Positions 2,098-26,531 of a stretch of DNA of 64,000 nucleotides are shown one piece after another; position 1 is the first letter of the stretch, and each line of letters starts with the position of its first letter. The notes beneath the pieces were generated by a model. That model searched no databases. It had not been told where the DNA came from and was given only the letters and a program-made list of their open reading frames with translations. The stretch spans positions 27,590,001 to 27,654,000 of the forward strand of contig CM060732.1 in NCBI GenBank assembly GCA_030704615.1, written 5' to 3'. Source of the DNA: Takakia lepidozioides (Eukaryota > Plantae > Bryophyta). A program made the translations under genes and the position numbers.

Positions 2098-5000
2098 TCA
2101 CCAGTAATCCCCACAAGAACAAACCCCATCTTCAAAGTGGTGAAAGCGGTTAGCATCCCGTACAACAATTGCTCGGCCAACAATCTTTGAAATGAACTTG
2201 GTGGAGGTGTGGCAGTCACCACACACCCGAAGATTCTTGATGAGGAGGAGAGGCGCCCGAGGGGCCGTGCTGATCAGCCCAAAGCCAATGGCCAGCTTCT
2301 CACTGTGGTGGCAAAGAGAAAACTCCTTTTGCTCCTCCCCGACATCATGCAATACAAAGCGCGTGTCAGGCACATACCCTGCCTCCTTCATCTGCCCAAA
2401 CAATCTTCTTAGCTCAGCATGGATTTCCTTAATTTTGGGATGCAATTTGTCATCTACAACAAAGGTGTGCACTCTGTTGCCAACCTCAATGCAGCAGCAA
2501 CCTGCCTCCTTTCTGACCCCTCTGACCTTCATCATTTTTCTCACCTTTGCACTATCATCCCACCTGCCAGCTGCAGCATAGATGTTTGATAGCAACACGT
2601 AAGTCGCGGCGTCCTGTTCATCCCACTTAAGAATAGATGTTGCCGCACGTTCAGCCATCTCCACATTGCCATGGACTCTGCAGGCACCAAGCAAGGCCTT
2701 CCACACCACAGCATCTGGTTTGATTGGCATTTTATTAATGAGGTCCTCTGCCTCATTCAATTGCCCCGCACGTCCAAGGAGGTCCACCATGCAGCCAAAG
2801 TGCTTCACTGTTGGAGTGACACCATGATCTTGACTCAGGGAATCAAAGTAGCGTCTTCCTTCATCCAGTAGGCCAACGTGGCTGCACGCAGAGAGAACAC
2901 ATACAAAGGTGATACTGTCTGGCTTCAAGCCTTCGTTCAGCATTCCTTCAAATAGTTGCAGGGCCTCCATATGACAACCATGCTGGGCATATCCTGCGAT
3001 CATCCCATTCCAGGACACCACATCTCGTTCAGCCATATTGTCGAACACTCCCTTTGCATCCTTGATGCACCCACATTTGGCATACATATCCATAAGGGTA
3101 TTGTTCAGAATGACATCTGGTACAATTCCAGCTTTCACGATGACACCATGGACCTCCTTGCCCTTATCCAGGGCAGCCAGGCTCGCACATGCATTACAAA
3201 TGGAAACAAACGTGATGTGGTTGGGCGTCACCCCTTCCTGCATCATTTGCTCATAGGTCTCCAAAGCCTCCATCCCGCACCCCTGCTGTGCATATCCTGC
3301 GATCATCGCATTCCACGACACAACATCTCGTTTGGCCATATGGTCAAACACTCCCTTTGCATCCTTGATGCACCCACATTTGGCATACATATCCACGAGG
3401 GTATTGTTCAGAATGACATCTGGTACGATCCCAGCTTTGACGATGTCACCATGGACCTCTCTGCCCTTCTCCAGGGCTGCCAGGCTCGCACACGCATTGC
3501 AAACACAAACAAACGTGATGCGGTTGGGCTTCACCCCTTCCCCCATCATTTGCACATAGGATACCAAAGCCTCCATCCCGCGCCCCTGCTGTGCATAGCC
3601 TGCGACCATTGTATTCCATGATACCACATCTCGTTCAGCCATATCGTTGAACACTCCCATTGCATCCTTGATGCTCCCACATTTGGCATACATGTCCACC
3701 AGGGTATTGTTCAGAATGACATCTGGTACAATTCCAGCTTTCACGATGTCACCATGGACCTCTTTGGCCTTTTCCAGGGCTGCCAAGCTCGCACACGCAT
3801 TGCAAAGGCAAACAAACGTGATGTGGTTGGGCTTCACCCCTTCCTGCATCATTAGCTCATAGGTCTCCAAAGCCTCCAGCCCGAGCTCCTGCTGTGCATA
3901 TCCTGCAATCATTGTGTTCCACGACACCACATCTCGTTCAGCCATATTGTCAAATACGCTCTTTGCATCCTCGATGCACCCACATTTGGCATACATGTCC
4001 ACGAGAGTATTGTTCAGAATGATATCTGGTACAATTCCAGCTTTCATGATGTCACCATGGACCACTTTGCCCTTTTCCAGGTCTGCCAGGCTTGCACATG
4101 CATTACAAACACAAACAAATGTGATTCGGTCAGGCTTCACCCCTTCTCGCATCAATTGCTCATAGGTCTCCAAAGCCTCCATCCCACGCCCCTGCTGTGC
4201 ATATCCTGAGATCATTGCATTCCACGACACCACATTTCGTTCACCCATACTCTCGAACACTCCCTTTGCATCTTCAATGCTCCCACATTTGGCGTACATG
4301 TCCACAAGGGCAGTGCTCAGAACGACAGCTGGTACAATTCCAGCTTTCACAATGTCACCATGGACCTCTTTGCCCTTTTCCAGGGCAGCCAGGCTCGCAC
4401 ACGCATTGCAAATGCAAACAAATGTGATGTGGTTGGGCTTCACCCCTTCCCGCATCATTAGCTCATAGGTCTCCAAAGCCTCCATCCCGAGCTCCTGCTG
4501 TGCATATCCTGCTATCATTGCGTTCCACGACACCACATCTCGTTTGGCCATATGGTCAAACACTCCCTTTGCATCCTCGATGCTCCCACATTTGGCATAC
4601 ATGTCCACCAGGGCAGTGTTCAGAACCACATCTGGTACAATTCCAGCTTTGATGATGTCACCATGCACTTCTTTAGCCTTTTCCAGGGCTGCCAGGCTTG
4701 CACATGCATTGCAAATGCAAACAAATGTGATGTGGTCAGGCTTCAACCCTTCCCCCATCATTTGCTCATAGGTCTCCAAAGCCTCCATTCCGCACCCCTG
4801 CTGTGCATATCCTGTGATCATTGCATTCCACGACACCACATTTCGTTCAGCCATATTGTCAAACACTCCCTTTGCATCTTCAACGCTCCCGCATTTGGCA
4901 TACATGTCCACCAGGGCAGTGTTCAGAATGACATCTGGCACAATTCCAGCTTTAATAATGTTACCATGGACCTCTCTGCCCTTTTCCAGGGCTGCCAGGC

Positions 5001-5628
5001 TTGCACATGCATTGGAAACACAAACGAACGTGATGTGGTTGGGCTTCACACCTTCCCGCATCATTTGCTCATATGTCTCCAAAGCATTCCTACCACACCT
5101 ATGCTTTGTGAATCCTGCCATCATTATATTCCACGTGATCAAACATCGTTGAGGCATTCTGTTGAACACTTGGTGAGCATCGACGATGCTCCCGCACTTA
5201 ACATACATGTTGACAAGGGTGTTGTGTAGAAAAACGTTTGGCTTGAATCCACTGTGGATAATGTGAGCATGCACCTGCTTTCCAGCTTCCAGGCCTTTCA
5301 TCTTGATACATGTATGCAAGAGACAGACATAAGTATCTGAATCTGCTGAAATGACTCCTTGATTTAAAGTTTTTAAAGCCTCTTTCAGTCGGCCTGCCTC
5401 ACATAGCATCCTCACATGCCCAGGAGTGCCAGGAGAGGCATTCTGGACCTCCTCTCTTGGTCCTCTTTCGGAAGCTGTGGTCATGGTCGAGGTTCGTGAT
5501 TTTATCAACTGTGCCACTGCTGCTGCTGGTTCCAGTTGACCATCTACCCATGCAGGTTTCTTGCGGCTATTGATCCAGAGGGAATCGTAGGAAATTTTGT
5601 GCTTGAAATCCGGCTCTCTTGGATACAT
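2098..5628 (-). CDS. PLS-class pentatricopeptide repeat protein with E1/E2 and DYW cytidine deaminase domain (organellar C-to-U RNA editing factor)
   Basis: 1176-aa intronless ORF; eight 101-aa P-L-S periods (LVDMYAKCG, VVSWNAMI, ITFVCVCNACAS); HSEKLA and CGDCH zinc ligands; ends CSCGDYW. Start codon uncertain. Confidence 0.95.
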   Translation of the reverse strand: MYPREPDFKHKISYDSLWINSRKKPAWVDGQLEPAAAVAQLIKSRTSTMTTASERGPREEVQNASPGTPGHVRMLCEAGRLKEALKTLNQGVISADSDTYVCLLHTCIKMKGLEAGKQVHAHIIHSGFKPNVFLHNTLVNMYVKCGSIVDAHQVFNRMPQRCLITWNIMMAGFTKHRCGRNALETYEQMMREGVKPNHITFVCVSNACASLAALEKGREVHGNIIKAGIVPDVILNTALVDMYAKCGSVEDAKGVFDNMAERNVVSWNAMITGYAQQGCGMEALETYEQMMGEGLKPDHITFVCICNACASLAALEKAKEVHGDIIKAGIVPDVVLNTALVDMYAKCGSIEDAKGVFDHMAKRDVVSWNAMIAGYAQQELGMEALETYELMMREGVKPNHITFVCICNACASLAALEKGKEVHGDIVKAGIVPAVVLSTALVDMYAKCGSIEDAKGVFESMGERNVVSWNAMISGYAQQGRGMEALETYEQLMREGVKPDRITFVCVCNACASLADLEKGKVVHGDIMKAGIVPDIILNNTLVDMYAKCGCIEDAKSVFDNMAERDVVSWNTMIAGYAQQELGLEALETYELMMQEGVKPNHITFVCLCNACASLAALEKAKEVHGDIVKAGIVPDVILNNTLVDMYAKCGSIKDAMGVFNDMAERDVVSWNTMVAGYAQQGRGMEALVSYVQMMGEGVKPNRITFVCVCNACASLAALEKGREVHGDIVKAGIVPDVILNNTLVDMYAKCGCIKDAKGVFDHMAKRDVVSWNAMIAGYAQQGCGMEALETYEQMMQEGVTPNHITFVSICNACASLAALDKGKEVHGVIVKAGIVPDVILNNTLMDMYAKCGCIKDAKGVFDNMAERDVVSWNGMIAGYAQHGCHMEALQLFEGMLNEGLKPDSITFVCVLSACSHVGLLDEGRRYFDSLSQDHGVTPTVKHFGCMVDLLGRAGQLNEAEDLINKMPIKPDAVVWKALLGACRVHGNVEMAERAATSILKWDEQDAATYVLLSNIYAAAGRWDDSAKVRKMMKVRGVRKEAGCCCIEVGNRVHTFVVDDKLHPKIKEIHAELRRLFGQMKEAGYVPDTRFVLHDVGEEQKEFSLCHHSEKLAIGFGLISTAPRAPLLLIKNLRVCGDCHTSTKFISKIVGRAIVVRDANRFHHFEDGVCSCGDYW

Positions 5629-7160
5629 CTGGACCCACAGTCTATCCCTGCTCCTTCATCTATCCCTGCCTCTGCACAAATCACGTACATATCCTCGCCT
5701 TGCTGCTAGCAGCTGAAAATGACAGCGTAGATTTGTTCTAGCAAACACCCTAACCCTACTTATCAAACTATATCACATGCTGAATTGCTCCCAAGACTTT
5801 AAAAATGTGCTGGGGAGAGAGAGGATGACAATTATTAACAAAGCTTTTGCATTGCATCTTGTTGTCTTCTTGTCTCTGTAATTTAACAGGCATTCACCTT
5901 CTTGCTTCGACTGTCCCACCATTGACTGGGGTAGGGAAAGGATTCATTCCAAAGCTTGTCCTCATCTCTGTTATCTGTTTTTGGATACTTTCCTGTTGCC
6001 ACATTGGCAGTAACATGTCAAAAACACTCCAAACAACCATAGGTTCAGAATTCAACATGAAAGTTCAGGAACAACTGTGATAAGAGGGAAAAATAGGCTG
6101 AAATGTGTTGAAGATGTGCCCTTGCTAGCAATGCGTCTATTGAGCCACCGCCATCACTGCTTCCAGTTGACCATCTAACCATGCTGGTTTCTTGTAGCTA
6201 TCGCACCACAAGGAATCGTAGGTAATCTTGTGCTTGAAATCCGGACCCACACTCTATCATCTGCACCAGTCATGTATAGATCCTGTTGCCTTGCTGCTAG
6301 CAGCTGACAGTAATAGCCTAGATTTGTACACCCCAACCCTACTTATCACACACTAGTTCCTATGCTAAATTGCTCCAAGACTTCAAAAATTTGCTGGGGA
6401 GAGAGAGGATGACAATTTCCAAGAAAGATTTGCAAAGCATCTTGTTGTCTGCTTCTCTTGGTAATCTAACAGACATTCACCTTTTTGGCGCAATTGTCCC
6501 ACCATTGACTGGGGTCGGAAATATATTCATTCCAAAGCTTCACCTTGTCTTTGTTATTTGTTTTTGGGTACTTTCCTGCTGCCACATTGGCAGCAACATG
6601 TCAAAATCACTCCAAACCACTGTAGATCCACCCAACAAGCTTAATTAGGGCTGAGTCTGATAAGAGGGCAAAACAGGCTGAAATAGGTTGAAGACGAAGG
6701 TGCCTCACCACATTGTCCTTGACCTTGTGTCACGAAAGCAGCTAGCTTTTCTTTCACCCATGGAGGATTCAACCAACCATCAACCCAAAAGGACCTCTTG
6801 TGTGTGCTGCTTGTGTCTGTAGTCAGGTGATCTCCGATAGGTCTGTGAGGAGAACCACCATGGTGCAGCTGAGCAGACATAGATTTAAGCTCGGCCTCCT
6901 AAGACCAAGCTGACCCTCCCAAGTACCTTGTAAAGACCAAGAAAGATATCATTTCATGATACTAACAGGAAGAGCCCACATTTGCAAGACAGACAAACTT
7001 CTTTGTACTTTAAGAAAGTCACACCTTGCAATTGTGGTTGTCCCACCATTGTGAAGGATCTTTAAAAAACTCATGCAAGCTCTCCTCCATGCTCCACAGC
7101 AGACCTTTGTGCCCCAAAATCCGGCAGAATCAACATTTTGACAAGTTCCTTTAAGGAGTG
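5500..7160. repeat. Locally duplicated PPR 5'/upstream blocks
   Basis: TTCCAGTTGACCATCT, GTGCTTGAAATCCGG and GTCCCACCATTGACTGGGGT recur at ~5530-6110 and ~6160-6700, with further copies at 23030-25500 and 59500-62900. Confidence 0.75.
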
Positions 7161-8529: not shown

Positions 8530-8762
8530 TGTCAAGTTATTTTACCATTAGCGTGAAACTAGCTAGGAAATAGCTAGCTTTTACATATTGACATTTGGGA
8601 TTGGCCCAAGTGTCAATCCAGGGGTCAAGGCAGATTTAGGCCCTGGAGTGGTTATCTTCACGGCAAGCGCGGGAGGCTCATCTTTCTCGAGTTGAGCCTC
8701 ACCGCGCCTAGCTATGGCGCCGTAGATTTGTGAGCTCGTGCTTGTATTCTTCTTCTTTATCA
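8530..8762 (+). repeat. Terminal repeat block B1 (3' half of LTR)
   Basis: Near-identical to 19858-20174 apart from an 84-bp deletion; starts TGTCAAG, ends TTATCA. Confidence 0.9.
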
Positions 8763-8774
8763 CTCGAGAAAGAT
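8762..8774 (+). promoter_or_regulatory. Putative self-priming primer-binding site
   Basis: ACTCGAGAAAGAT is the exact reverse complement of ATCTTTCTCGAGT at 8680-8692; no TGG tRNA-type PBS present. Confidence 0.6.
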
Positions 8775-10329
8775 CAGCTCGAGTCTGTGAGTGCCAGGTT
8801 CGAGTTGTTTTGTAGCACTTGTGTTTTCATGAGAATCGGTTCAGCCTAGAGTGCAGGGATCCGTGCATGAGCCTATCCAAAGTGGATAGAGTGCAAAGGC
8901 GAACAGGTTGCAGGTTTGCAATGGATAGAGAGGCGGGTAGCTTATGTTGAAGAGCGGCGTTGCATAGCTCAACGCTATGGCAACCAAGTTTGGGCTTGTA
9001 GTGTGAAGCGGGGGAGATGCTGGTCTCGAGTGGGTGAACTGGTGGTCGTCTTCTTCAGCTGCAGGCCAAGTTAAGGAGCTGCAACAATGTGGAGCTGCGA
9101 GGGTGTTAGATGTAAGTCACAGTTATCGGGAGCTCCAACTTCAAGCTCATCAGGAGGTATGAGTGAAGAGAGATGGCTGATTTCTCTTGTATGCAAGCCA
9201 ATGCATTTGTGGCTATGTTGAGTTGGGGGTTTCAATCTGAAACTCCAGCGGTATGAGGGCTCTTGCCATGGCAAGAGCGGGGCTGGAACATGAGCTAAGA
9301 GGTGCGGCAAGGCCATGGAATGTGCACCTAGGGTTTCAGAGCTTGGAAGAAAAGTTCTTGCACCACAAGAGGAGTGTCTGGTGGCTGGAAATGTAAGCCT
9401 TAGGGTTTCAGGAGCTTGGCAAGGGCTGTGGAGTGCTTAGTCTTGTCTTAGAGAGCATCAAGGAGCTAAGGAGCCAAGATAGGGGGCTGATATCTCTTGT
9501 GTGAAGAGGTTGCATGTGTGGAGCATGTATTCAGCTCATTGAAGCTTCCATCTTCAAGCTTGGAGGGCAAGCAAGGAAGAGGGAAGGGCTGATTTCTCTT
9601 ATGTGAGGGCAATGCATGTGTGGAGCATGCTATCAGCCTGGTGAAGGCTTGCACTTTCAGGTGTGGGAGTGCAAGAAAGGAAGGAAGGGGCTGGTTTTCG
9701 TGTAGGGCATGTGGAGCATGCTTTCAGCCTGTTGAAGCTTGTATTTTCAGGTTTGTGGGTGCAAGAAATGAAACAAAGGAGCTGATTCTCTTATGGTGAG
9801 AGTGGGGCATGTGTGGAGCATGCCTTCAGCCCATTGAGGCTCTTGTTTTCAAGTTTTAGAGAGCTAGAACGGAAGGTCTAGGGCTGGTTTCCACTTGGAG
9901 TGAAAGAAAAGCACTTGTAGGGCCTATGTGAGTTGGGGTTTCAACTTCAAGCTTGAAGGGAGCGCAACTCTTGAAGCAGCAGGTGTAGGGGGCTAGAATA
10001 GGCTCTAAGACAGATGCTATGGCCAAGGAGAGTGCTTGAATGAGTGCTCACAAGGGCTGGGAACCAGCAGGGCTTGGTTGTTTGCCATTGAGTTTAGTGG
10101 CATGTTTGGGGAGGCTAAGTGAGAAAGAAGGCTTGGTTTGTGGCAACCACCTCATGGCTTAGGGCTACTATGGTGGTGTGTGGGAGCCGAAAGAGCAAGA
10201 ATACCTTGCTGATTTCCTCACAGCCGCCATAGCTCGGTGGAAAGAAGCCTAGAGTCCAAGAGACACAAACCCTAGCTTGGCGTGGCTAAACCCCTTGGAG
10301 AAATGGCTAAACTGCCAGAGCGACCATGG

Positions 10330-11570
10330 ATGGGGATGTGACGGGCTGTCCCTGTGGCCTTGGGGGCTGTGAGGGGCTGTGAGGGGCTGTGTTGGGCTGC
10401 GCTGGTGGCCTTTAGGGCTTTGACGGGCTGCGCCGGTGGCCTTCGGGACTGTGACAGGCTATGCCCAATGGCCTGTGGGGCTGTGACGGGTTGTGAGGGG
10501 CTTGACAGGCTGTGCCCTGTGGCCTGTGGGGCTGTGACGGGTTGTGAGGGGCTTGACAGGCTGTGCCCCGTGGCCTGTGGGGCTGTGACGGGCTATAAGG
10601 GGCTGTGACAGGTTGTGCCTTGTGGTCTGTGGGGCTCTGACAGGCTATAAGGGGCTGTGACAGGCTGTGCCCTGTGGCGTGTAGGGGCTGTGAGAGGCTG
10701 TGGCGAGCTGTGACGGGCTCTGAGGGGCTGTGAGAGGCTGTGGCGGGCTGTGACAGGCTGTGCCCAGTGGCCTGTGGGGCTGTGCGGGGCTGTGACAGGC
10801 TGTGCCCTGTGGCCTGTGGGGCTGTGACGGGCTGTGACGGGCTGTGGCGAGCTGTGATGGGCGATGAGGGGCTGTGACAGGCTATGCCCAGTGGCCTGTG
10901 GGGCTGTGAGGGGCTATGAGGGGCTTGATAGGCTGTGCCCTGTGGCCTGTGGGGCTGTGACGGGCTATGAGGAGCTGTGACAGGCTGTGCCCTGTGGCCT
11001 GTGGGGTTGTGACGGGCTATGAGGGGCTGTGACAGGCTGTGCCCTGTGGCCTGTGGGGCTGCGACGGGATGTGACAGGCTGTGACAGGCTGTGATGGGCT
11101 GTGATGGGCTGTGGCAAGCTGTGACAGGCTGTGCCCTGTGGCCTGTGGGGCTATGGCGGGCTGTGACAGGCTGTGCCTAGTGGCCTGTGGGGCTGTGGCG
11201 GGCTGTGACAGGCTGTGCCCTGTGGCCTGTGGGGCTGTGACAGGCTATGCCCAGTGGCCTGTGGGGCTGTGAGGGGCTGTGGCCTTTGGGGCTGTGACCC
11301 CTGTGACCTGTGTCGGGCTGTGATAGGCTATGCCCTGTGGCCTATGGGGCTGTGAGGGGCTGTGAGGGGCTGTGATAGGCTGTGGCCTTTGGGGCTGTGA
11401 CCCTGTGACCTTTGTAGGGCTGTGACAGGCTGTGCCTGTGGCCTTTGGGGTTGTGATGGGCTGTGACATATGGCCTTTGGGGCTGTGACAGGCTGTGGCC
11501 TGTGAGCTGTGTGGGCCTGTGCTGGTCTGTGGTGGCCCGTGTTGACCTGTGGATGGCCTGTGTTGACTCG
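10330..11570. repeat. GGCTGTG(A/G)-based minisatellite in the long 5' leader of the DNMT element
   Basis: Dozens of GGCTGTGAC / GGCCTGTGGGGCTGTG units. Confidence 0.9.
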
Positions 11571-12150
11571 TGGAGGCACTGGTGGACTGCCTAAGGACTG
11601 GTATGTGGTCTTGAAGGCCGAATTTTGAAGCTCGTGGAGGGCGGTTTGAGGAGTATCTTCATGATATTCCCATGGTCATGCACGTGAGGGAAGAGAGGAG
11701 AGGAAGAGTGTTGGGATGAGGGCATGCTGGGGTTAGGCATTGCTTTAGTTTCTCTTCCTCATAGTTTCCACCCTCTCATTATGTCAAGACCTTTCCGTAG
11801 GTGGAGGCAAGAGTCAGTCCGGGTTTGGGCTGGGGTGTCCTTGCAGGAGCAACACCGTGGAGTTGTTTTTTGGTGTGGGGGAGTTGTCGTTTTGATTTCT
11901 TGTGTTTGGATCCCCTCCATACCTGCATGCTTGACTGTGCGCCATGCTAGTTTTGTGTGGGCGCTTGTTTTTATAGGTGATTGGTCCGGATTTGATCACT
12001 GGCCAGTCCTAGAGCATGCTGTCGGTGAGGCTGGGGTGATGACCAGCCAACCATAGGAGTGCTTGCGGTGGATGCAGGTACAGGTGTAGGCTATGTTAGG
12101 AACTTAGTATTCCAAACCCTAAGCCGCAACAGGTTCTCTACCCGGTTACC

Positions 12151-14310
12151 TTGTGGAGAGGGGGTTATGGACATATTCATGACCGGTTGAGTGTCAACAC
12201 GGAGGTGCCACTAGTTGCTGGGGACAGTGCCGGTTCGAGCACTAGCGATACTAGTGGGTACACGAGACGAGGTGTGCGGTTTAGGCCACCTTCACCTCCT
12301 GTGTCTTCTACGGAAGATTCTGATTCGGATTGTGAATCAGGAGGACTCATATCGGCGGTGCAAGTTGTTTCTTTGCCATTGTTGTGGGACACAATGGAAA
12401 AGATGTATGGAGCTACCAAAGGGCCACGAAGGTACTCTGGGGCGGTGGGCACCATCGAGTTGGATGATTTTATCCAAGAGTTTGATAGTTGGTGTGATTT
12501 GCAGCAAATGCGCAAATCCACAACTATTTACGCCTTTCATGGCATGGAAGGGGCTGTTTCAGCACCTTGAGGGGCCGCCTATGGATGATTACCATGAGTT
12601 CAGGCGGGGGCATGAGGTTGAGATCGAGGAGTGGAGGTTGTACTGGTCACCCGACTATGTCTCCATCACTAGGGGCACTAGAGCCACGAGGGCAGTGGCT
12701 ACACCTGCCGCTGCACCGGCAGCTTCAGCAAGTAGTAGTAGGACTAGTGGGACTGGTGGTACAGTAGCTACGACGTCCACCCAAGCCACTACCGCACCAG
12801 CACTAGTACCCGTGCCTGCCTTTAACCCTGTTGTGGAGTTCTTCGAAGAGTTGAGAGGGAACTACCAAGGGGTGAGGACAGAGAAGTTGCGGAGCTTGCA
12901 AGAGTTCCAATGGAAGCCGACCGAGAGCTTGATGGAGGCTTTCACTTGCATGAGGCGCTTGATAAATGTAACCCAAGGGGTTACGGAAGCTCAGGCAGTC
13001 CAATTCTGGTATGGGATATTGGACAAGGAGCTGGGGAGAAGGGTGCGGGATGCAACTCTCCTACAAGTGGCCCAACCCACCTTAGCAAATGTGTTTTTGC
13101 TGGCAGCGCGGATAGAGCTCGACATGGTGGAGGAACGAGTGGTCATGGTGGGATTTGCTAAGGAGACGCCACGGGGTAGTGGTGCTCCTAGCCAACCACT
13201 ACCTCAACGTGCTCAAGGCAACAAGGGGGCTCAGGTGAAGCTCAGGGAAGGGCAGAGAGGACCTCAGATGCAGGGGTCTCTCCCTTCATTTGCTGGCCAA
13301 CAACGGGCGGATGTGGTGTGCTGGACATGTGGAGGACCCCATGTCAAGAAGGATTGCCCAGAGGGAGGCAAAGGGTCGGCACATGCACAGCCTGCACAGT
13401 TGTAGTGTGGGCATTGTGGCAAGCACGGGCATGGAGAGGCCCAGTGTTATGGTTTGCATCCTGAGTTGCGCCCAGGCCAGTTCCAAGGGAACAATGGTGG
13501 CCGGGGGCGAGGTGGAGCAGCCCAGAGAGGACGAGGTGGCCAGCCACGAGGTGCAGGCCAAGGGCAAGCTCAACATGGCCAAGGACGCGGAGGTCAGGGT
13601 GTTGACCAAGGCATGGCCAACCGGCTTCAGCAGCTAGAGCAGAGGCTCGCTGCCATGGCTACAGCTCAGGTGGTACCGGCTCTAAGGCCGGATGGTCCAC
13701 CTCCTGCTCCTGAGGGAGGAGATATGGGAGGCATGGGATTCATGTGTGGAGCAGCACTACCACTAGTGCAGGTGGAGTCTGCTGCAGCCGTGACTCGAGG
13801 AGCAGCACGAGTTCCTGAGCCACGAGGTGTAGAGGTGGAGTTGGATCCACAACGTGGGGAGGCAAGCCGTCAGGCTAGGCTTCCTCAGTCATTCACATTG
13901 GCGGAGACAGTGTCGACGCCATCCATGGCACCTAGTTCTCGCCCGACTGTTACCGAGGCGGAGGTTACTATGCCATTGAGGAGAGCTACACGGGTAGCAC
14001 CACTACCTAGTGTTGCCAAGGCTACGGCAGCTAGTGTGCTGCTAGGAGCGGCCACATCTGTGTGCCAGGCTCTATTGTTCTCCGCTACCATGATTGCGAC
14101 GCCGGGGGTAAGACCAGCTGAGGTGTTCAGGCTGGCAGCTACACTCTGTGAGAGTGGGGAGGTTACTTCATCTTCTGCGGAGATAGTGGGAGGTGTAGTG
14201 CCGGAGGGATCCTCGGATTTGAGGGTCAAGACTGCCACGGCGGTGCCATGGCAAGCTACAGCTGCCAGGTTGATGGAGCTGCCAGCTAGGCCAGTCGTAC
14301 CGGCCACTGC
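12151..14310 (+). pseudogene. gag: gag (two CCHC zinc knuckles), disrupted
   Basis: ELDDFIQEFDSWC; frameshift near 12515; CWTCGGPHVKKDC; TAG at 13403 then CGHCGKHGHGEAQC; RGG-rich tract follows. Confidence 0.85.
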
Positions 14311-14315
14311 GGGTC

Positions 14316-14680
14316 TTGTTGGACTCGGGAGCTCAGCCATTGATGCTGGGCAGAGCTGCTATTGCAGGCTTGGGCCTCACGGAGGCGGATATGGAGCCTT
14401 GTCCTTTCCAGATACAGACGTCTCTGGGAGGATCGGAGCAGGCTCGGGGCATGACACGGCGTGAGTTGGCTATCAGACTACAGCCGGATCACCCTACAGA
14501 TGGCTCAGTGATGCGAGCCAAGGCCATTGTGACAGACGCGGTCTCATACGATGTCCTGGTTGGTGGGGCAGTGTTGTACCCCATGGGCTTCACCCTGGAT
14601 TTTTGGGAGGAGTCAGCTTCCTATAGGCCTGCATGGCAGTCAGGGGAGGGTTGGCGTGTGCAGCTCCCTGTGACGTTCAT
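14316..14680 (+). CDS. Retroviral-type aspartic protease domain of pol
   Basis: LLDSGA catalytic motif and YDVLVGG flap/end motif. Confidence 0.85.
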
Positions 14681-15029
14681 AGGAGGAGTTGCGGTTGCCC
14701 AACGAGGCAAGATGCCGACACTAGCAGCATTCACAGCGGCAGTGAGTTGGCCTAGAGAGTTGCTTGAGGGCAACGCTCATTCAGAGGATGTACCACCTCC
14801 GGGAGAGCAGGATGACATGTATGGTATGGCGGAGTTGCCTACCATGGTTGCTCAGACTCCATTGTGGGGCACGAGCAAGGATTTGCAGCGGAATGCTGAT
14901 CGACGGGTGCAACAAGCCTGGGTGGAGGCTTTTGTACCGTCAGGAGAGGAGGAGAGTGCGGGGATTGCACCAGGACCACCTCAGTTGTCTCCATTGGACA
15001 CCACACCTATTGTGTGGCAGTATCCGGAT

Positions 15030-15990
15030 GAAGGCATTTGTCTTCTGGACTTGTTTGGCGGGATCAGCACCGGATTGGCTGCTGTGTTACAGGCAGGTGT
15101 ACGAGTTTGGCGTTACCTGTATGTGGAGAGGGATGAGACTGCACGACGCGTTTCACTTCGCCATGTTGCTCAGTTGGTGCAGCGGTACCCTGAGTTGTTG
15201 TCGGTGTCTGCAATTCGTGGATATCAGCAGGCCTTGCCAGCAGACATTTCGTTGCTGGGGGCGCAGGATTTGGAGCGGGTTGGCTCCATTGATCTGGTAG
15301 TGGCAGGTTGGCCCTGCCAAGGGCATTCATCAGCCGGGCATGGCAATGGATTGCGAGACTCGAGGTCGGGTCTGTTTTGGGAGATGGTGCGGGTTTTGCG
15401 CCACTTGCAGCTTCATCAAGCTGTATCTCCAGCATACATCTTGGAGAATGTGCCACTGATGGGCGATTCTTGGGCCAGGGTGATGGCCAGTGTGCATCAA
15501 GTCCGGTCGTGGCTTGGGTCAGCAGTGTTGCTAGATGCAGCTACAGTGGGGTCACGGGCTCATCGTCCACGGCTATGGTGGACTAACTTGATGCCACCCG
15601 CACTGCTCAAGCGTGCATTTGATGGGGTGCAGCGGCCAGCACATCTCACAGTGGATAGCATTCTGGACACAGGGAGGCAGTCTCAGCGTGTGAGACACGA
15701 TGACCGTTTGCCTTTGGCAGTGGTCAACAAGGTGGGTCAACCACGAGCAGCATTACCTACACTGCTCAGCTTCCCAGGATCGCATGCTTTCCGGGATAGT
15801 GGACCTGGCCTCTTGTGGGATGCTCAGTTGCAGCAGTTAGTGGAGCCTAATGCTGACGAGCGTGAGCGGGCAATGGGTTTTACCACTGGTACCACGGCGG
15901 TGTTGTCTCTTTCTGAGGCATCACGTCGTCAAGTGTTGGGGCAAGCAATGGATCTCAATTGCTTGACCTGGATTATCAGCTTGGCTATGG
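15030..15990 (+). CDS. C5-cytosine DNA methyltransferase domain, in frame with the protease
   Basis: Motif I LDLFGGISTG, II YVERD, III ADI, IV AGWPCQGHS, V DSRSGLF, VI LENV, VIII AHRPRLWW, IX ERERAMGF, X LGQAM; no stop codons. Confidence 0.93.
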
Positions 15991-16434
15991 CTGAGCAACG
16001 CAGAGTGCGGAGTACACTTCCCTCGATGGTCTCTCTGCCTACCGAGACGGTACAGGCAGTGAGTGGGGGCGAGCATGTGAGGACCACGGGGTGCATGCAT
16101 CCATGGCACACGTGGGAGGTGCTCGAGGTTCAGAGGGAGTTGGCAGCCAAGGTGGCGATGAAGATGAGGTTGGGGATTTTTCTCGGGTGGAGGAAGTCCT
16201 CAGGATGAGATGATGGGGCAAGATGAGGTCTTGTCATTGACTGAGCAGGTAGGGAGTATTGCTCAAGAGGTTGCAACATAGCAACCACTGGACGCGTCCT
16301 CTACCTCTAAGCCCACTGGACTTAAGGTTACGGAGGACAATTGGGAGCCTGACATTGGACCCATTGTCACCGGAGGAGAGAGACGACGTATACGGCGGTT
16401 CCTGAGGGCTTACAGGAATTGCTTTGCCTTCAGT

Positions 16435-17316
16435 TTGAAGGACTTGGGAGCACTGAAGGGTCAAGAGATCCGTATTGAGTTGGCCATTGACACGCCAATC
16501 TTTCGGAGACCCTATAGATACAGTGACATGGAGAGGTCTTTGATTCAGATGAGGACTCAAGATCTCTGGGAGGCAGGTTTGGTGGAGCTCTCTGGTGGAG
16601 AGTATGCTTCAGCCACAGTGATGCCAGCCAAGAAGGATGTCTATGGCAATTGGATGGAGAGACGTATGTGCGGTGATAACCGGCCTGTAAATCGTCAGAC
16701 CAAGTCCGATAAGTATGCCATGCCAACACCAAAGGAGATCTTTGATGCCATTGGGCATGCTAAGGTCTTTAGCACTTTGGATTTACGATCCGGATATCAC
16801 CAGTTGCCAATCAAGGAGGCGGACAAGCAGAAAACGACATTATGGGGGATCAATGCGCACGACAAGGATTGCCTATATCAGTGGCGGTTCTTACCATTTG
16901 GGCTTAAGAATGCTCCTGCAGAGTTTCAAAGAGTCATGGATAGGATTCTAGCAGGGGTGGACTTTGCTCGGTGCTACATAGATGACATCATCATCTTTAG
17001 TGTTACGATGGAGGAGCATGAGAGACACCTTCAGGTGGTATTGGAGCGCTTGAGAGCACACGGATTGAAGTTGCATCCGGGGAAGTGCAAGTTTTTCCAC
17101 AACCAGATTGAGTATCTGGGTCACATGATATATCCTGGAGGATTGGGGGTACAGCAGACTAAGGTAGAGGCCATTGCACAAATTCCACGCCCCATAGATG
17201 TGAGCCGAGTTCGAGCTTTCATGGGGTTGGCAAACTATTATAGACGGTTTGTCAAGGGATTTAGTACCATTGCAAAGGCTCTAACCAAGCTGACTAAGGT
17301 GGACCAGGAGTGGTAG
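16435..17316 (+). pseudogene. Reverse transcriptase (Gypsy type)
   Basis: LDLRSGYHQ, LPFGLKNAP, YIDDIIIF, YLGH; premature TAG at 17314. Confidence 0.95.
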
Positions 17317-17361
17317 TGGGAAGATGAACAGGAACGAGCTTTTCAAGAGCTCAAGGCAAGG

Positions 17362-17799
17362 TTGATCTCGGCGCCTATCTTGAGACGACCTATCAGGGGG
17401 CGTCCCTTTCAGCTGCATACGGATTGGAGCATGCTGGGGCTTGGAGCAGTGCTCACACAGGTGGATGATGAGGAAAGAGAGTTCGTAGTGGCTTATGCTA
17501 GCCGCTTGAACAACGCTGCAGAGGCTAAGTACAGTTCATATGAGGGAGAGTGCTTAGCTGCAGTGTGGGCCGTGGCACACTTTAGGTGCTATCTATACGG
17601 CAATATTTTCACCCTTGTCACGGATCACCAGCCACTCAAGTGGTTGATGGAGTCAGACAAGCTTACGGGGAAGCTTGCATGGTGGGCACTCATACTCCAG
17701 GAGTATGACTTTCAGGTTGTGCATCGACCGGGTTTGGTCAATCGGGATGCGGATGGATTGAGTTGCAATCCATGCATGAGCCAGCAGGATGACACTTGA
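17362..17799 (+). pseudogene. RNase H domain
   Basis: LHTDWS, YSSYEGECLA, TDHQPL, ADGLS. Confidence 0.9.
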
Positions 17800-18159
17800 G
17801 CTCAGTGGCATGGTGAGACGGACGAGGAGATGGTGTCGGGATGGCACGCATCTGCATTTTTGTGTATCTTGGCATCGGGAGGTCAGGTTGGACCTACAAC
17901 AGGGATGACTGTAGACGGAGTGTCTGCGGACCCTGAGGCTAGTGATGAGCTAGGTGGTGCCAGAGATATACATAAGGATTCGGCTGTGTTGGGCTACCTC
18001 TGCACGGGAGACACGGCAGCCACTGTGACTGCCAGGGAGAAGGATCGGATCCTGCAACGAGCCAAGAGGTTCAAGTGGGAGGGGATACACCTACTTCGAG
18101 TGTGGGAGGATGGTCGGGTGAGGATTGTGCCTCACCCCACACAACGTGCACGGTTAGTG

Positions 18160-19210
18160 CGGCATGCCCATGAGGAGTTGGGGCATTTTGGAGTGTGACG
18201 CATTCACAGTTTACTGCAAGGGCAGTATTGGTGGCGTGGTATGCATACAGAGGTGCAACAGTTCGTGGCTAGGTGCATGGTGTGTGACAGGGTGCATGCT
18301 TCATTCAACGCCCCTACACCACAGTTGCATCCTTTACCAATCATGGGATTGGGCTACAGGTGGAATCTTGACTTCGCAGGACCGTTGCCACTGACTATGC
18401 GCCACCACAGATATGTGTTGGTGATGGTGGAGCACTTCTCCAAGTGGATTGAGTTGGTTCCATTGCCTGACAAGGCTAGTGAGGGGGCTGCGTATGCATT
18501 CTTGGATCGTGTGCTTAGCCGATTTGGTGCTCCAGCTGAGGTACTCATGGACCAAGGGAGAGAGTTCTTGGGGGAGTTTCAGGCTTTGTGTGATAAAGCC
18601 TTGATAGACCACCGCACCACTTCTCGGGATCATCCTGAGGCCGATGGCTTGGTAGAGAGAGTTGTTCAGACGGTGAAGAGGGGTTTGCGCAAGTATGGCT
18701 TGCAGAAGGGACATCTAGGAGATTAGGATCTTCAAGTTCCTTGGTTAGCCATGGGCTACAGGTTCAGCAAACAAACATCACTTGTCTCCTTCTCACCATA
18801 TTTCCTTCTCTTTGGCCGAGAGCCGGATTTTCCTGCAGCCATTCGTAGGGACACTGCTCAAGTCCTTAACCTTGACGATCCGGATGTGTGGGTACGTGCA
18901 TGTGATCAGCGTGCAGAGTTGTTCAAGAAAGTCATGCCCATGGCTTTTGAGAACCTTGCCATTGCACAGCACCGTGATACGTTGAGGTATGCCACTATAC
19001 GTGGTGGAGGCTATCGTCCTGGGGTTCGGAGGTTTAGCCCTGGGGACTATGTTTATTTGCAGCAGACTGCTCCTACGACTCTGGATGTTACTACAGGGCG
19101 TGTTATTCTGAGGGTTCAAGAGGTGTTGCCCTCAGGAGTCCTGATCTTGGAGGGTCGGGATGGCATGACTTAGAAGGACCATGTGCGTAATTGTGCGCCA
19201 TGTCACCTTC
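18160..19210 (+). pseudogene. DDE integrase with HHCC zinc finger
   Basis: HEELGH...CMVC, LDFAGPLP, DQGREF, GLVERVVQ, SPYFLLFG; stops at 18196, 18724, 19171. Confidence 0.92.
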
Positions 19211-19263
19211 CCAATGTCGATGGCAGAGTTGACCCAAACTTGGCAATGGTACCTGTAGGTTTG

Positions 19264-19400
19264 AGGTGCATGCTGTGGGTCTGCCAAAGGGGCAGCCACC
19301 ATGCTGGTGTGTGATCGATGCTCAAGGGTTGGCATATGGGATGCTTGACACCACCTCTTGAGAAGGTTCCTGACAGAGATTGGTTGTGTCCACACTGCTT
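19264..19400 (+). pseudogene. PHD finger at the pol C-terminus (frameshifted)
   Basis: Reconstructed RCML...MLVCDRC..GWHMGCLTPPLEKVPDRDWLCPHC (C4HC3 pattern). Confidence 0.85.
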
Positions 19401-19667
19401 GGGATAGTGGCAGTGGACATGACTGGAGGCAACTAACAAGACATGGGAGGCCAAGCTCATAGGAGTCAATACATGAGATCCCAAGCTCAAGTTCACAGGT
19501 TGCAAGACGACGACTAACGATGGGGCAACTCTTGCACCCGGCCTCTTGATCTATCGAGTTTGAGTGTAGTAGGGATAGTGGTGGAGGACTTAGTGAGGCT
19601 ATGGTCACTATCACATCTTGTGGCTACCTGGACTTAGAGGGACCTAAGCACCAGCTAGGGGGGCGAT

Positions 19668-20174
19668 TGTGTGGACTAGTGACTGCCATAGTGGGCAGCA
19701 TAGTGGCAGCCTAGTGACTGACTAGTTGTAGCCTAGTGGTTGGACTAGTGGTTGGACTAGTGGTGGACTAGTGGTATACTAGTGTGTGGTGTGCACATGT
19801 GTTGTGTGGTTTTGGACAGCGATGTAGTTGTGTAGCGATATGTATGCGCACGATAGCTGTCAAGTTATTTTACCACTAGTGTGAAACTAGCTAGGAAATA
19901 GCTAGCTTTTACATATTGACATTTGGGATTGGCCCAAGTGTCAATCCAGGGGTCAAGGCAAATTTAGGCCCTGGAGTGGTTATCTTCACGGCAAGCGCGA
20001 GAGGCTCATCTTTCTCGAGTTGAGCCTCACCGCGCCTAGCTATGGCGCCGTAGTGTGGATTTCCCATGGCGTGGGGTGCACTTGGCTTGACTTGTATTTG
20101 AGTGATGAGGTTATATATGCATGAGTTTATGCTTCAGATTTGTGAGCTCGTGCTTGTATTCTTCTTCTTTATCA
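19668..20174 (+). repeat. Complete LTR (A1 + B2), preceded by the polypurine tract
   Basis: AGGGGGGCGAT then TG...CA; A1 19668-19855, GC, B2 19858-20174. Confidence 0.85.
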
Positions 20175-20175
20175 T

Positions 20176-20345
20176 TGTGTGGACTAGTGACTGCCATAGT
20201 GGGCAGCATAGTGACAGCCTAGTGTAGTTGTAGCCTAGTGGTTGGACTAGTGGTGGACTAGTGGTATACTAGTGTGTGGTGTGCACATGTGTTGTGTGGT
20301 TTTGGACAGCGATGTAGTTGTGTAGCGATATGTATGCGCACGACA
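20176..20345 (+). repeat. Extra terminal block A2 (5' half of LTR)
   Basis: Near-identical to 19668-19855; ends GCGCACGACA directly before the TSD. Confidence 0.9.
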
Positions 20346-20980
20346 TCAACAACAAATCTTTTACATCCTCTTTTAGGCCACATCGAGGTCGCACGCAAGT
20401 TGTCGAAATTCGGCAACATAAACGAAAGCTGGACGTGTTCATTGTCGAGGATTTCGCATCTTTATCTCTGCAACTCTCTCTCTATCATTCTCTCCAAACA
20501 TTGTAGTGAACTCGGACATGAACGCTTCAAAATTGTATTGTAAATGCGAATTTTTCTCTAATAGCGGTGCAAACCAAGATAGGGCAGTGCCGGATAGAAG
20601 GATGCCCACAAATCCCACTTGAATATCTTCATCAGGGCGTTATGGATGTATTCGTAGGAACAATCGTATTTGTTGAATACAACCGCGAAATCTTGATCTC
20701 GTCCTATCAAATTTTTCGGGTATGCTGACCTTTGATTCCTTTGTAATCTGTTGAAAATTTGGAGAAACCGTTGCAGTATGATTTATTGTAGTAGGGACTT
20801 GTAAGGTTGAAGATCCATTGTTCGACTCCTTCTGAAATTTGTTGTTGCAAATTGTTGAGAGCGTTGTCAAGATCTTGAGACTGATTAGTTTGTAGTTGGG
20901 CAGTAGAGGCACAAAGTTCTTGCATCTGGAGCTGGAGACTCTACAATGTAGCGACCATTTCCGCAAATGTGTCTTCCATC
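20346..20980 (-). pseudogene. gag: 5' part of the host Gypsy gag
   Basis: IPEKFDRTRSRFRGCIQQIRLFLRIHP...LLSGTALSWFAPL. Confidence 0.8.
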
Positions 20981-22118: not shown

Positions 22119-25100
22119 ACACTACAACAGATTGCGGCTTTTATGACTCCCATGGCTGCGCAGTCATGACAGATTTGTGGCAGAAATGCCATTTGAAGTC
22201 GTAGATGGCTTTTGAAGTCATAACGCAGGTCCGGGGAAGGCGTATATGCGATTGCATGACTCCGGACTCTGCGCAACACATGTCAAACATGTTTGACCAC
22301 GAATATTGGCATGGCAGATATGACTACCAGTCACGGTCATACCTACACTGGAATGACGTGTACAAATTGCTAGACGGACATATGACTTTATGACTCTCAC
22401 TCTAATGCATTCTGCCAGATCATCACATGGATGAATCACTACATGACTGCACGTGTCGACACATGCTTTTCTGGTTATATATATAATATATCAATATTTA
22501 TATTTTGAAAAAATGTCGGAGACTCTAACCACTAGAATGAATTTTTTTTTTTTAAATCAAAGTGCAAAAGATTTGAAAAAAACAAATCGGCTGGAGGTGC
22601 ACAGTGTGTCGCCCCGGTGGTTCGGGGTTCAAACCCGCTGCCCTACCCCGTGTGTGGGATTGTTCATGACGATATGTTTGGGCGTTGATCGTCCTGTAGG
22701 TCTCATGGCCCAAATGAAAGGGGGTTAATTTTTCCCCCTCCTCAAGGGCATGAGGCTTCCTTTAAAAATTAAAAAAATTAAAAAATCAAAAAATTGCTTA
22801 TAGGGTTTGCAAGAAGGTTAAAAAACTTAAAAAGTTGCCCATCACGGTAGTCGTGAATCGAATTAGAGTGAGCGGGAGGGAGGGAGATAGAGAGAGAGGG
22901 CTGGGACTTAGAGCGAGCGGGAGGGAAGGCAAACATGTATGGGAGGCCGCAGTTGGAGCAACCTTTGCATCTGAAGCAAGCAACCCTAGAAACGCTAGGG
23001 TATGTGTGCGAGGAGGTTTTGGCTGGGAGCTCGTCGTTCTTGGGAGAGTCAGCTTGGCTTAGCTAGGCCATGTTTCAATCTCTACCCGCTCAGTTGCACC
23101 GTGGTGGTTCTCACAAACCAATCCGACATTACCTGACTACAGAAACAAGTAGCACACTGAAGAGGTCCTCTTGGGTTCATGGTCAGTCAAATCCTCCATG
23201 GGTCATGACACAAGGTCGAGGACAATGTGGTGAGGGCAACCTTCTTCTTCGACCTATTTCAGCCTATTTTTCCCTCTCATCAGACTCGGCCCTTCATTTG
23301 CAGCACGGAGTAGAGTTGGCATGAGATTTTTAAAGATCCTTCACGATGGTGCGACAACCGCAATGGCAAGGTGTGGCTTTTCCTTAATGTACGATGTAAA
23401 GAAGTTTGTCCATCCTGCAAATGTGGGCTGTTGGCTCCTGTTAGTACCATGATTTGGTATTCTTCCTGATGTTTCAAGGTTCTTGGGAGAGTCAGCTTGG
23501 TCTTAGCAGACCGTGTTTCAATCTCTGCCTGCTCATCTACACCGTGCTGGTTCTCATAGACCAATCCGACATTACCTGACTACAAGACACAAGCAGCACA
23601 CACAAGAGGTCCTTTTGGGTTGATGGTCGGTCAAATCCTCTATGGGCTCTTCTTCAACCTATTTCAGCCTGTTTTGCCCTCTCATCAGACTCGGCCTTGA
23701 GATGCATATTGAATTATGTAAGTTAGCTCGTTGCTCATTGATAAGTAGGGTTGGGGGTGTTTGCTGGAATGATTGTTGTATGCATGATTTTGTGCAGAGG
23801 CATAGATAGCTGAAGGAGCAGGGATAGAGTGTGGAAGAGGGCCAGATTTCAAGCTCCAGATTATCTATGATTCCCCGTGGAAGGATAGATACAAGAAACC
23901 TGCATGGGTAGATGGTCAATTGGAAGCTGCAGCAGCAGCGGCACAATTGATAAAATCAAGCACTACTAATGAAGGCACCTTCTGAAACACATTTCACCCT
24001 ATTTTCCCCTCTTATCAGAATCGGCCCTAAATTTTCATGTTCAATTCTGCAAGTTAGCTGGTTGAGTGAATCTAGTTGGAGTGACTTTGACATGATACTG
24101 CCAATGTGACAAGAGTATGCATTGAACCCATTGGTAGCGGGATATTGGGATATCTCTTGGCCATGTGCCATCGTCAAAGCTGAAATTGTACTAGTTGTCA
24201 TTCTGACCACTGCCCTAGTGGACATATATGCCAAATGTGGGTGCAGCAAGCCTGATGCAAAGGGAGAGTTCGACAACATGGCTAAATGAGATGTGGTGTT
24301 ATGGACTGCCATGATTGTAAGGTGTGTGTAGCATAGGTGTGGGAGTAAGGCTTTGGAAACCTAAGAACAAATGATGTAGGAAAGGATGAAGCCAAACCAG
24401 GTCATGTTCATTTGTGTTTGTTAATATGCATATGCGAGCCTAGCAGCCCTGGGAAGGGGCCAAGAGGTTCATGGTGACATCATCAAAGCTGGAATTGTAC
24501 CTGATGTCATTCTGAACATTCCCCTGGTGTACATGTATGTCAAATGCGAGCCTGGTAGCCCTGGAAAGGACGCAAAGGTCCATTATCAAATCTGGAATTG
24601 TACCACTAGATGTCACTCTAAAGACTGCCTTGGTGGATATGTATGTCAAATGCATGTCTGGCAGCCCTGAAAAAGGGTACAGAGGTCCACGGTGATATTG
24701 TCAAAGTTGGTATTGTATCTGATGTGATTCTGAACGTTGTCATAGTGGACATGTATGCCAAGGTTGCAGGGTGCAACTACAAGGATACATGGCTGTTTTG
24801 ATAATATGGTTGAATGAGATGTGGTACCAGCCTAGCCCATAATTGCACTTAACTAGAGTAGGCAATGAGTGAAGACGGGGTTTGTGATGACATCGTCCAA
24901 GCTGGAATTAAACAAATGTTGTTCTGAACTATGCCCTTGTGGACTTGTATGCCAAATTGGGGTGCATGGAGGATGATGATTCTAGGATATGCACAACAGC
25001 GGCGTGGGATGGAGGCCCTTTGGAGAGGTCTATGAGCAAGTGGTGTGGGAAGGGATACTGCAGCGCAACCACATTGGTACATTTGCAACATGTGTGCAAG

Positions 25101-25504
25101 CCTGGCAGCCGTGCAAAATAGCAAAGAGGTTCGTGGTAACATCGTCCAAGCTAGAATTGTACTAGATGTTGATCTGAACTTTGACATGATGCCAATGTGA
25201 CAACAGGAAAGTATCCAGAAACAGGTCACAGAGACGAGGAGAAGTTGTGAAATGGTGGGACAACCGAGGGAAAAAGGTTAATGCCTGTTAGATTATAGAG
25301 GGCAGACGCAATTCAGCATAGGAACTAGTGTGATAAGCTGAGTTGGGTGTTTCCTAGAACAAATCTAGGTTGTCATTATCAGCTGCAAGGCAAGGAAGTA
25401 TGCATGATTTGTGCACAAGCAGTGATAGTTGAAAGAGCAGGGATAGAGTATGGGTCCAGATTCATCCAAGAGGGCCAGATTTCAAGCACATGATTACCGA
25501 TGAT
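22119..25504 (+). repeat. Left arm of a large inverted duplication
   Basis: Colinear reverse complement of 60223-63843; paired ORFs such as 23956-24312(-)/61404-61760(+) and 24440-24655(-)/61061-61276(+). Confidence 0.9.
24160..25150 (+). pseudogene. Degenerate PLS-PPR fragments
   Basis: GTGGACATATATGCCAAATGTGG and GCTGGAATTGTACCTGATGTCATTCTGAAC match PPR repeat units, with stops and frameshifts. Confidence 0.8.
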
Positions 25505-25967: not shown

Positions 25968-26531
25968 TCACGTTGTCAATGGGACTTTGACTGCTCTCAG
26001 AACTAGCTCATGAGTCATGGGGCTCCTCCATGTAAAGTCGATTGCAGCCGTTGTACCGCCCCTAGTGATGTTCACCACAATGTCCTGCCCTTCAATCATA
26101 CCACCATCGAATATGGAAATCTTCACGTTTTCGTCGTCCACACCAATGCGAATGTCCCCATACAATGGAGAAGAGGAGCGCACTCCTCGAGGAGAATAGG
26201 TCTCTCCGATGGAGTCCACCCACGTCCAGTGGCAGCAGTTCCACCGCAACAGCATAGCAGTGCGCCTTCTTCTGCATAGGTGACCGTCGTAGCTGGGAAA
26301 ATCGGAATCGAGGATGCGCAGGAGCCACGGACTCCTCAGACCAAGATCGTCACCCCGCTCGAAGGCGTAGTGGCCTACGATATACTCAAAAGCCACCAAT
26401 GTTTCCACAATCGAACCAGTATCTTCTGTGTAATCTGTGTACCAGATAACAATGTCTCCCGATGTGGCCGAATACATTGCATAATCGATGCCTCCAAAGG
26501 GGCAGTCGTCCCGGTTCCGGAAGCACGGCAT
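25968..26531 (-). CDS. Unknown ~190-aa protein, RWNCCxWT family, copy 1
   Basis: Open frame; aligns over its length with 27082-27651 from MPC onward (GDIVIW, AFEY, WLLRILD, RWNCCHWT, YGDIR, DGG.I.G.DIVV). Confidence 0.7.
   Translation of the reverse strand: MPCFRNRDDCPFGGIDYAMYSATSGDIVIWYTDYTEDTGSIVETLVAFEYIVGHYAFERGDDLGLRSPWLLRILDSDFPSYDGHLCRRRRTAMLLRWNCCHWTWVDSIGETYSPRGVRSSSPLYGDIRIGVDDENVKISIFDGGMIEGQDIVVNITRGGTTAAIDFTWRSPMTHELVLRAVKVPLTT

Follow-up and report, generated by a model that had tools for sequence, protein, structure and literature searches.

A decayed 11.8-kb Ty3/Gypsy retrotransposon carrying a DNMT3-type cytosine methyltransferase lies at 8530-20345 of a 64,000-nucleotide stretch of Takakia lepidozioides contig CM060732.1 (hereafter the window, whose own numbering is used throughout). 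Its identity as a high-copy Ty3/Gypsy-type element with a DNMT3 domain is almost certain. On balance, we favour reading it as a dead copy in a high-copy family, a likely homologue of KnitGypsy-Dnmt3 of the charophyte alga Klebsormidium nitens, whose live copies would pack the DNA methyltransferase (DNMT) at the level of Gag and likely methylate their own new DNA. The DNMT3-Gypsy kind itself is already known; what this element adds is a further host family, a stop codon that assigns the enzyme to the Gag product, and details of how such elements would replicate.

As shown in Table 1, the element is flanked by the 4-bp target site duplication (TSD) TCAA. Contigs of run X1 join position 8525 to position 20346 with four shared letters, which is the joint of an empty site. 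The order Gag, protease (PR), reverse transcriptase (RT), RNase H (RH) and integrase (INT), together with a D-D(35)-E integrase, supports the initial annotation of a Gypsy-type retrotransposon, and Pfam matches in the 3′ part place RT, RH and INT downstream of the methyltransferase, as that annotation had stated. A Pfam protease match was obtained for relatives and none for the Takakia copy. The C-terminal PHD finger was matched in the intact relative L025 (PF00628, E 2.6e-10). The Takakia copy is dead, with six premature stops and five indels; in gag, the reading frame is disrupted near 12514 by a frameshift and at 13403 by a stop.

Table 1. Features of the Takakia element, in window coordinates.
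Feature	Position	Strand	Evidence
Left TSD, TCAA	8526-8529	+	identical 4 bases at 20346-20349; X1 empty-site joint
Repeat A, copy 1 (starts TGTCA, ends CA; ~84 bases shorter than copy 2)	8530-8762	+	alignment
12 bases in A complementary to the primer-site position; putative transcript start and self-primer	8680-8691	+	shuffle maximum 9
Primer-binding-site position, without the TGG start typical of tRNA primer sites	8763-8774	+	
Array of degenerate 10-base repeats, 5′ leader	10325-11540	+	
gag, two CCHC knuckles (13319, 13406)	12394-14294	+	alignment to Gag-PR-DNMT proteins of Marchantia
Aspartic protease, DSG at 14322; deletion near 14295 just upstream	14298-14660	+	alignment with relatives
C5 cytosine methyltransferase domain of the DNMT3 type; no internal stop, complete motif set	15021-16010	+	PF00145, profile, structure model
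Motif I	15045-15068	+	alignment
Motif IV (PCQ; Cys codon at 15315)	15303-15329	+	alignment
Motif VI (ENV)	15435-15452	+	alignment
Motif VIII (RxR)	15552-15587	+	alignment
Motif IX	15843-15881	+	alignment
Motif X	15924-15953	+	alignment
In-frame stop TAG CAA CCA ending ORF1; predicted readthrough signal	16279-16287	+	junction comparison
Reverse transcriptase, YIDD at 16975	16336-17313	+	PF00078, E 4.7e-32
RNase H	17317-17760	+	PF17917, E 9.6e-35
Integrase: H2C2 zinc finger, D-D(35)-E (18370, 18550, 18655); interrupted by stops	18130-18900	+	PF00665, PF17921
C-terminal PHD finger, two frameshifts	19260-19404	+	relatives
Polypurine tract	19657-19666	+	
Repeat B, copy 1	19667-19855	+	
B/A junction, decayed GACA-GC-TGTC palindrome; predicted integrase cutting site	19852-19861	+	
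Repeat A, copy 2	19858-20174	+	
Repeat B, copy 2; GACA end is the element's right end	20175-20345	+	
Right TSD, TCAA	20346-20349	+	

The stop-to-stop ORF at 14274-16208 (+) encodes 644 amino acids, and its part at 14316-16208 (+; 630 codons plus the stop) contains the protease and the DNMT3-type C5 methyltransferase without an internal stop. The ORF scan agrees with the initial annotation, which had described a 630-codon frame running from the protease DSG into the DNMT motifs. That the C5 methyltransferase is complete was also confirmed, since PF00145 matched the 644-residue ORF with E 2.2e-12 (47.5 bits, cut-off 22), the motifs are unpermuted and none is missing from the domain, and PCQ, ENV and RxR are all present. 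The numbers I-X given to the motifs at 15045-15953 follow the usual nomenclature. The 630-codon frame is bounded on both sides by damage to the Takakia copy, on the left by the deletion near 14295 and on the right by a frameshift of one base near 16161; other copies in run X1 differ from it at both places. Among 11 lesions, a lesion-free gap as long as this frame arises by chance with P = 0.39. That the frame is open is therefore no evidence for retention of the enzyme in the Takakia copy. Stops per 100 codons of dead copies are alike across domains (DNMT 1.08, RT 0.70, RH 1.17, INT 1.21 and PR 1.13).

By sequence profile and structure model, the methyltransferase domain is of the DNMT3 type: DNMT3 enzymes match it better than DRM, DNMT2 and the bacterial ones do. 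The earlier assignment as a C5 methyltransferase therefore stands, with the type now placed by profile, phmmer and Foldseek. DNMT3A ranked top in a phmmer search against solved structures (E 1.5e-10), and a profile of 40 domain sequences matched DNMT3A with E 2.1e-21 versus 9e-12 for DRM, 2e-6 for DNMT2 and 3e-6 for HhaI. When an AlphaFold model of the domain (pLDDT 83, pTM 0.87) was used with Foldseek, all listed rows were DNMT3A/B/C, at a query TM of 0.61-0.68. The domain has the fold and motif order of animal DNMT3A/B/C and plant host DNMT3, but is only ~20% identical to them and is without PWWP, ADD and DUF3444 (compared with the host enzymes as described in PMC6453930). Pfam found no DUF3444 in the ORFs of the Takakia element.

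The catalytic Cys is conserved in 134 of 142 aligned proteins and in 42/44 loci, and the Glu of ENV in 157 of 168 aligned proteins and in 43/44 loci. Thr247 is invariant in the domain alignment, where Cys, ENV and RxR are conserved too. Between the Takakia copy and 16 loci, pN of the DNMT was 0.17-0.34 and pS 0.72-0.81, similar to RT; with pS saturated, these values indicate purifying selection on the DNMT and no recent transfer among these hosts. Between L025 and L029, dN/dS was 0.11; a dN/dS comparison among copies had been proposed in the initial annotation. In live copies the enzyme would likely be active.

In run X1, 137,315 of 3,038,600 contigs fall on the element. The summed depth, which is not a copy number, reaches a similar magnitude (~1e6) over DNMT and RT, versus 47-109 for the eight long single contigs listed. 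We take the family to be high-copy, likely with thousands of copies. The domain is family-wide and not a one-off, as the initial annotation presupposed, in view of this RT-like depth over the DNMT and the same domain order in Marchantia, Calypogeia and Sphagnum. The matches to the domain that were listed (120 of 296, and 68 in another listing) come from Marchantia polymorpha, M. paleacea, Riccia, Calypogeia, Sphagnum and Klebsormidium nitens, and no vascular plant is named among them. The order PR-DNMT-RT is also found in the K. nitens protein KFL_009030040. Marchantia proteins, for example P0123, have Gag-PR-DNMT in one ORF and are 74% identical in the domain; the relatives in M. polymorpha are annotated as hypothetical proteins. 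The lineage is widespread in bryophytes and seems to be a homologue of KnitGypsy-Dnmt3, not the product of a new capture in land plants.

In a quick DNMT tree of 95 rows, built without a host DNMT3 or other outgroup, the Takakia copy belonged to a 32-row group (support 97) that it shared with Calypogeia, Sphagnum and Marchantia, and within which it lay outside the subgroups of the latter two. Klebsormidium stood on a separate long branch in this tree and was not joined to the land-plant group to the exclusion of elements of the order RH-DNMT-INT. In an RT-RNase H tree of 27 rows, likewise quick and without an outgroup, a branch with support 100 separated all PR-DNMT-RT elements, including Klebsormidium, from the RH-DNMT-INT elements. 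A single capture would be plausible. The DNMT family comprised 518 clusters at 50% identity (E up to 1e-30), and RT-RH-DNMT-INT-PHD, found in 28 of the best 150 representatives, was the commonest complete order there. This second architecture has a related DNMT (P0156, P0158, P0163, P0164, P0168, P0180 and others), and we found no mention of its order in the text of PMC5890265.

Some neighbours of the family were noted in passing. Protein P0182 (1417 aa) combines C5 methyltransferase and Dam adenine methyltransferase domains and recalls the EpiLTRs in the text of bioRxiv 10.64898/2026.05.21.726589. Chlamydomonas Gypsy-7a, with a PHD finger and 'LTR subparts' (bioRxiv 10.1101/2022.06.16.496473), may by that description be a methyltransferase-less relative. 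The viral and the prokaryotic collections gave two loci each, of which three are distant partial matches and one, L083, is an intact element. L083 and the related protein P0023 are filed under cyanobacterial/Obscuribacterales MAG names and are likely eukaryotic contamination.

The window belongs to a land plant, as had been supposed. All named matches of the intact PPR gene at 2098-5655 (−) are land-plant proteins, and in a FastTree analysis of 117 rows the gene clustered (local support 95) with sequences of lycophytes, liverworts and mosses, nested in none of them, which by itself places the host no more closely than among seed-free land plants. This gene is an intronless PLS-E-E+-DYW gene with near-identical 303-base triplet repeats.

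The repeats of the Takakia copy are laid out as A-coding-B-A-B and not as two full terminal direct LTRs. Its first copy of A differs from the second at 4 of 233 aligned bases. The same layout was found in L042, L073 and L077, with the TSDs AAGG and CATA (L073 and L077 being one insertion). Second A copies were preceded by YGACA plus two bases at 8/8 loci and first A copies at 0/19, and the GACA-GC-TGTC palindrome is intact even in L029 and L083. The presence of a polypurine tract, a primer-site position and a TSD argues that the element works like one with permuted LTRs. A tyrosine recombinase, a trait of DIRS elements, was not found by Pfam in the ORFs of the Takakia copy or in the intact L025, where an rve integrase was found instead.

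Complementarity between the primer site and repeat A extends over 12 bases in the Takakia copy, 16 in L033, L040 and L042, 15 in L025 and 12 in L083, with different sequences in the four families and shuffle maxima of 8-11; for L025 and L083, the end of A was picked by the best primer complement. Among 19 peat-moss-like 5′ ends, a complement that clearly exceeds the shuffle maximum is left in only 3; the other 16 reach 4-10 bases. We infer that the primer site may pair with the element's own repeat A for self-priming. Self-priming of the Tf1 type needs a primer site complementary to a 5′ stretch (PMC7175516), and the primer-site position of the Takakia element is likewise complementary to a part of its 5′ repeat, as described for Tf1 and Tcn1 (PMC7175516, PMC6317226). 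In contrast to these, it is without a chromodomain, has a TSD of 4 bp instead of 5 bp, and has split repeats.

Since B lies after the polypurine tract and A before the primer site, B plus A would be the functional LTR, and the integrated form would then be a two-LTR circle reopened at the palindrome. Reverse transcription, self-primed by the 5′ end of the RNA, would give B-A-coding-B-A DNA. The ends would join, and the integrase would open the circle by a staggered cut at GACA-GC-TGTC, giving A-coding-B-A-B and the 4-bp TSD; just one of two such palindromes would be used. If cut in a staggered manner after each CA, the circle would acquire ends resembling the products of 3′ processing by retroviral integrases, with a recessed CA. 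The permuted repeats hint at a DDE integrase working from a circle.

The initial annotation had pointed to elements of charophyte algae, and the likeness was borne out by the domain order and by the A-coding-B-A-B repeats, which are also those of KnitGypsy-Dnmt3 (PMC5890265). Like the Takakia element, KnitGypsy-Dnmt3 has Gypsy domains and an intronless, unpermuted DNMT3 domain, its RT groups with the Takakia RT, and purifying selection was found in both (PMC5890265). KFL_009030040, which appears to be one of the KnitGypsy-Dnmt3 copies of that paper, has PR-DNMT-RT-RH-INT as here and is 45% identical over 260 aa, with EHV where the Takakia element has ENV. The Takakia element differs in having a land-plant host and a stop codon in frame between its DNMT and RT; for KnitGypsy-Dnmt3, the DNMT was assigned to the Pol ORF (PMC5890265). 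We found no mention of a self-priming site, a palindromic junction or a PHD finger, as seen in the Takakia element, in the text of PMC5890265. With the DNMT in the same frame as RT but split from it by a conserved stop, the element is a variant of the KnitGypsy-Dnmt3 kind. SymbioDIRS-Dnmt3, of independent origin (PMC5890265), also has a DNMT3 domain in a retrotransposon polyprotein and A-coding-B-A-B repeats, but it has a tyrosine recombinase where the Takakia element has a DDE integrase. De novo CG methylation by SymbioDIRS-Dnmt3 was shown in yeast, while the KnitGypsy-Dnmt3 enzyme gave no methylation there, a result called inconclusive by its authors (de Mendoza et al. 2018, PMC5890265).

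Membership in the REXdb lineage Phygy was considered and rejected on TSD type and primer site. Phygy elements have a 4-bp NCGN TSD and a tRNA-Trp primer site; the TSDs here have that length (TCAA, AAGG, CATA), NCGN occurs in 0/19 left flanks, and the primer site has no TGG start and is self-complementary instead. A term search of three supplementary files of PMC5890265 gave no Marchantia or Sphagnum entries. In the text of two later papers of the same group 'streptophytes' are mentioned, with land plants unnamed (PMC12344493, bioRxiv 10.64898/2026.05.21.726589). No account of DNMT3-bearing Gypsy elements in land plants, or of their readthrough, was found in the literature within our scope, which stopped short of Repbase, most subscription journals and the supplements of the streptophyte papers.

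The initial annotation had placed the DNMT inside pol. Its place between PR and RT in the coding region holds, but the domain ends a Gag-PR-DNMT ORF and lies upstream of a conserved stop, and so would be made at the level of Gag and not of Pol. In intact relatives Gag-PR-DNMT is a single ORF, and many long relatives terminate 60-140 residues past the DNMT domain. At the DNA level, DNMT and RT are in one frame in 40 of 59 junctions, 33 of these having exactly one stop, and the stop context TAR-CAR-YY (TAG or TAA) was found in 54 of 60. The intact L025 has 1369 codons, TAG CAG TTA, and then 1047 codons of RT-RH-INT-PHD; L029 and L083 have TAG CAA TCA, and L006 has TAG CAA CCA as in the Takakia copy. 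Across 622 contigs of run X1, no variant above 3% was listed at 16279-16287. The consensus of the tobamovirus type I readthrough signal is UAG-CAR-YYA (PMC3542737), and the six bases after the stop match it in six elements, that is 5/60 junctions (Takakia copy, L006, L025, L029 and L031) plus L083. The second codon is Leu, Ser or Pro with YYA kept, which fits selection on a signal of this type. DNMT and RT are joined in a single predicted protein in the Klebsormidium clade and in P0154/P0155, so the stop is not universal. P0153 and P0363, taken up as distant-clade relatives for comparing the stop, turned out to be different elements.

We consider it probable that the UAG is read through by a minority of ribosomes. 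Most ribosomes would halt at UAG-CAR-YYA and release Gag-PR-DNMT, and the minority would continue into RT-RH-INT-PHD. Retand and Ogre elements also have one stop codon that separates the protease side from RT, in the layout GAG-PROT:stop:RT-RH-INT (PMC6317226, supplement 3); the Takakia lineage differs from them in the methyltransferase ahead of the stop, which is the new point, and has no extra RNase H as in Tat elements. The position of the stop would put the enzyme in the particle in Gag-like excess, which points to cDNA as the predicted substrate. The protease would free the domains inside the particle, and the methyltransferase would mark the cDNA before integration, so that a new copy would enter a methylated genome already marked. 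Methylation of cDNA has already been proposed by de Mendoza et al. 2018 (PMC5890265). We lean slightly towards the element's own cDNA as the main substrate; depletion of CG and CHG was uninformative, CG depletion being unable to separate self-methylation from host methylation.

The enzyme could instead act on chromosomal DNA, either at the insertion site by way of the PHD-bearing integrase or on parental copies, limiting its own family. Such a role, which we regard as unlikely, would suit the PHD finger on the integrase and the second architecture, where the DNMT lies between RNase H and integrase, and nuclear entry would be within reach of an enzyme produced at the level of Gag; however, in the Takakia lineage the DNMT is translated with Gag, on the opposite side of the stop from the integrase, and target sites show no CG preference, given the 0/19 count for NCGN.

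Readthrough has its own competitor, in that RT-RH-INT could be made by reinitiation, splicing or a second promoter, with the methyltransferase still made with Gag. We give this route a rather small chance. At 47 of the 60 junctions, all of one peat-moss-like family, the sequence is CAA CCC ATG, which misses the final A of the strict CAR-YYA; 12 of the 47 have TAA, and the ATG would be usable for reinitiation. Against it, the frame is continuous across the stop, and the six elements that fit CAR-YYA, with their three different second codons, have no ATG at the junction.

It is still less probable, in our estimate, that the domain acts on or binds RNA or is a non-catalytic nucleic-acid-binding part of the particle. 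The inactivity of KnitGypsy-Dnmt3 in yeast (PMC5890265), the EHV of the K. nitens protein and Gag-level amounts suited to RNA coating would agree with this, but the conservation of Cys, ENV, RxR and Thr247 and a fold nearest to DNMT3 and far from DNMT2 argue for a DNA methyltransferase. One-off capture of DNMT3 from a host, or domestication of the methyltransferase gene with its frame preserved in a dead element, may be dismissed, because the 630-codon frame that stays open in an otherwise broken copy is expected by chance, host plant DNMT3s carry the DUF3444 that gave no match here (PMC6453930), and one-off capture is contradicted by the same domain order in many genomes, purifying selection and X1 depth.

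Taken at its fullest, the preferred reading, with cDNA as substrate, would describe a lineage outside any REXdb group, reaching from green algae to seed-free land plants, with self-priming, a palindrome-opened circle, a readthrough-loaded active DNMT3 and new copies that are pre-methylated; this whole is tentative and rather doubtful as a package. If true, a de novo methyltransferase encoded by an abundant repeat could shape a land-plant methylome. Permuted repeats escape finders of LTR pairs, which may explain the absence of the lineage from plant classifications. The function of transposon-borne methyltransferases has been in question since 2018, partly because the described hosts are hard to handle; the genetic model Marchantia polymorpha harbours relatives, which makes this function testable in that species.

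Elsewhere in the window, an assembly gap of 500 N lies at 30553-31052. An inverted duplication (22119-25504 and 60223-63843, 93-98% alike) contains broken paralogues of PPR genes. Three paralogous ORFs at 25968-26798 (−), 26959-27651 (+) and ~56480-57075 (−) are 36-44% identical, two of them head to head, and Pfam gave no match for the two that were searched, including 26959-27651. A repeated ORF family at 52451-53608 (+), 37249-38269 (−) and 31202-31531 (−), 64-80% identical and with no Pfam match, is probably another transposon. An unrelated Gypsy element has left remains of its RNase H and integrase at 47523-48862 (+).
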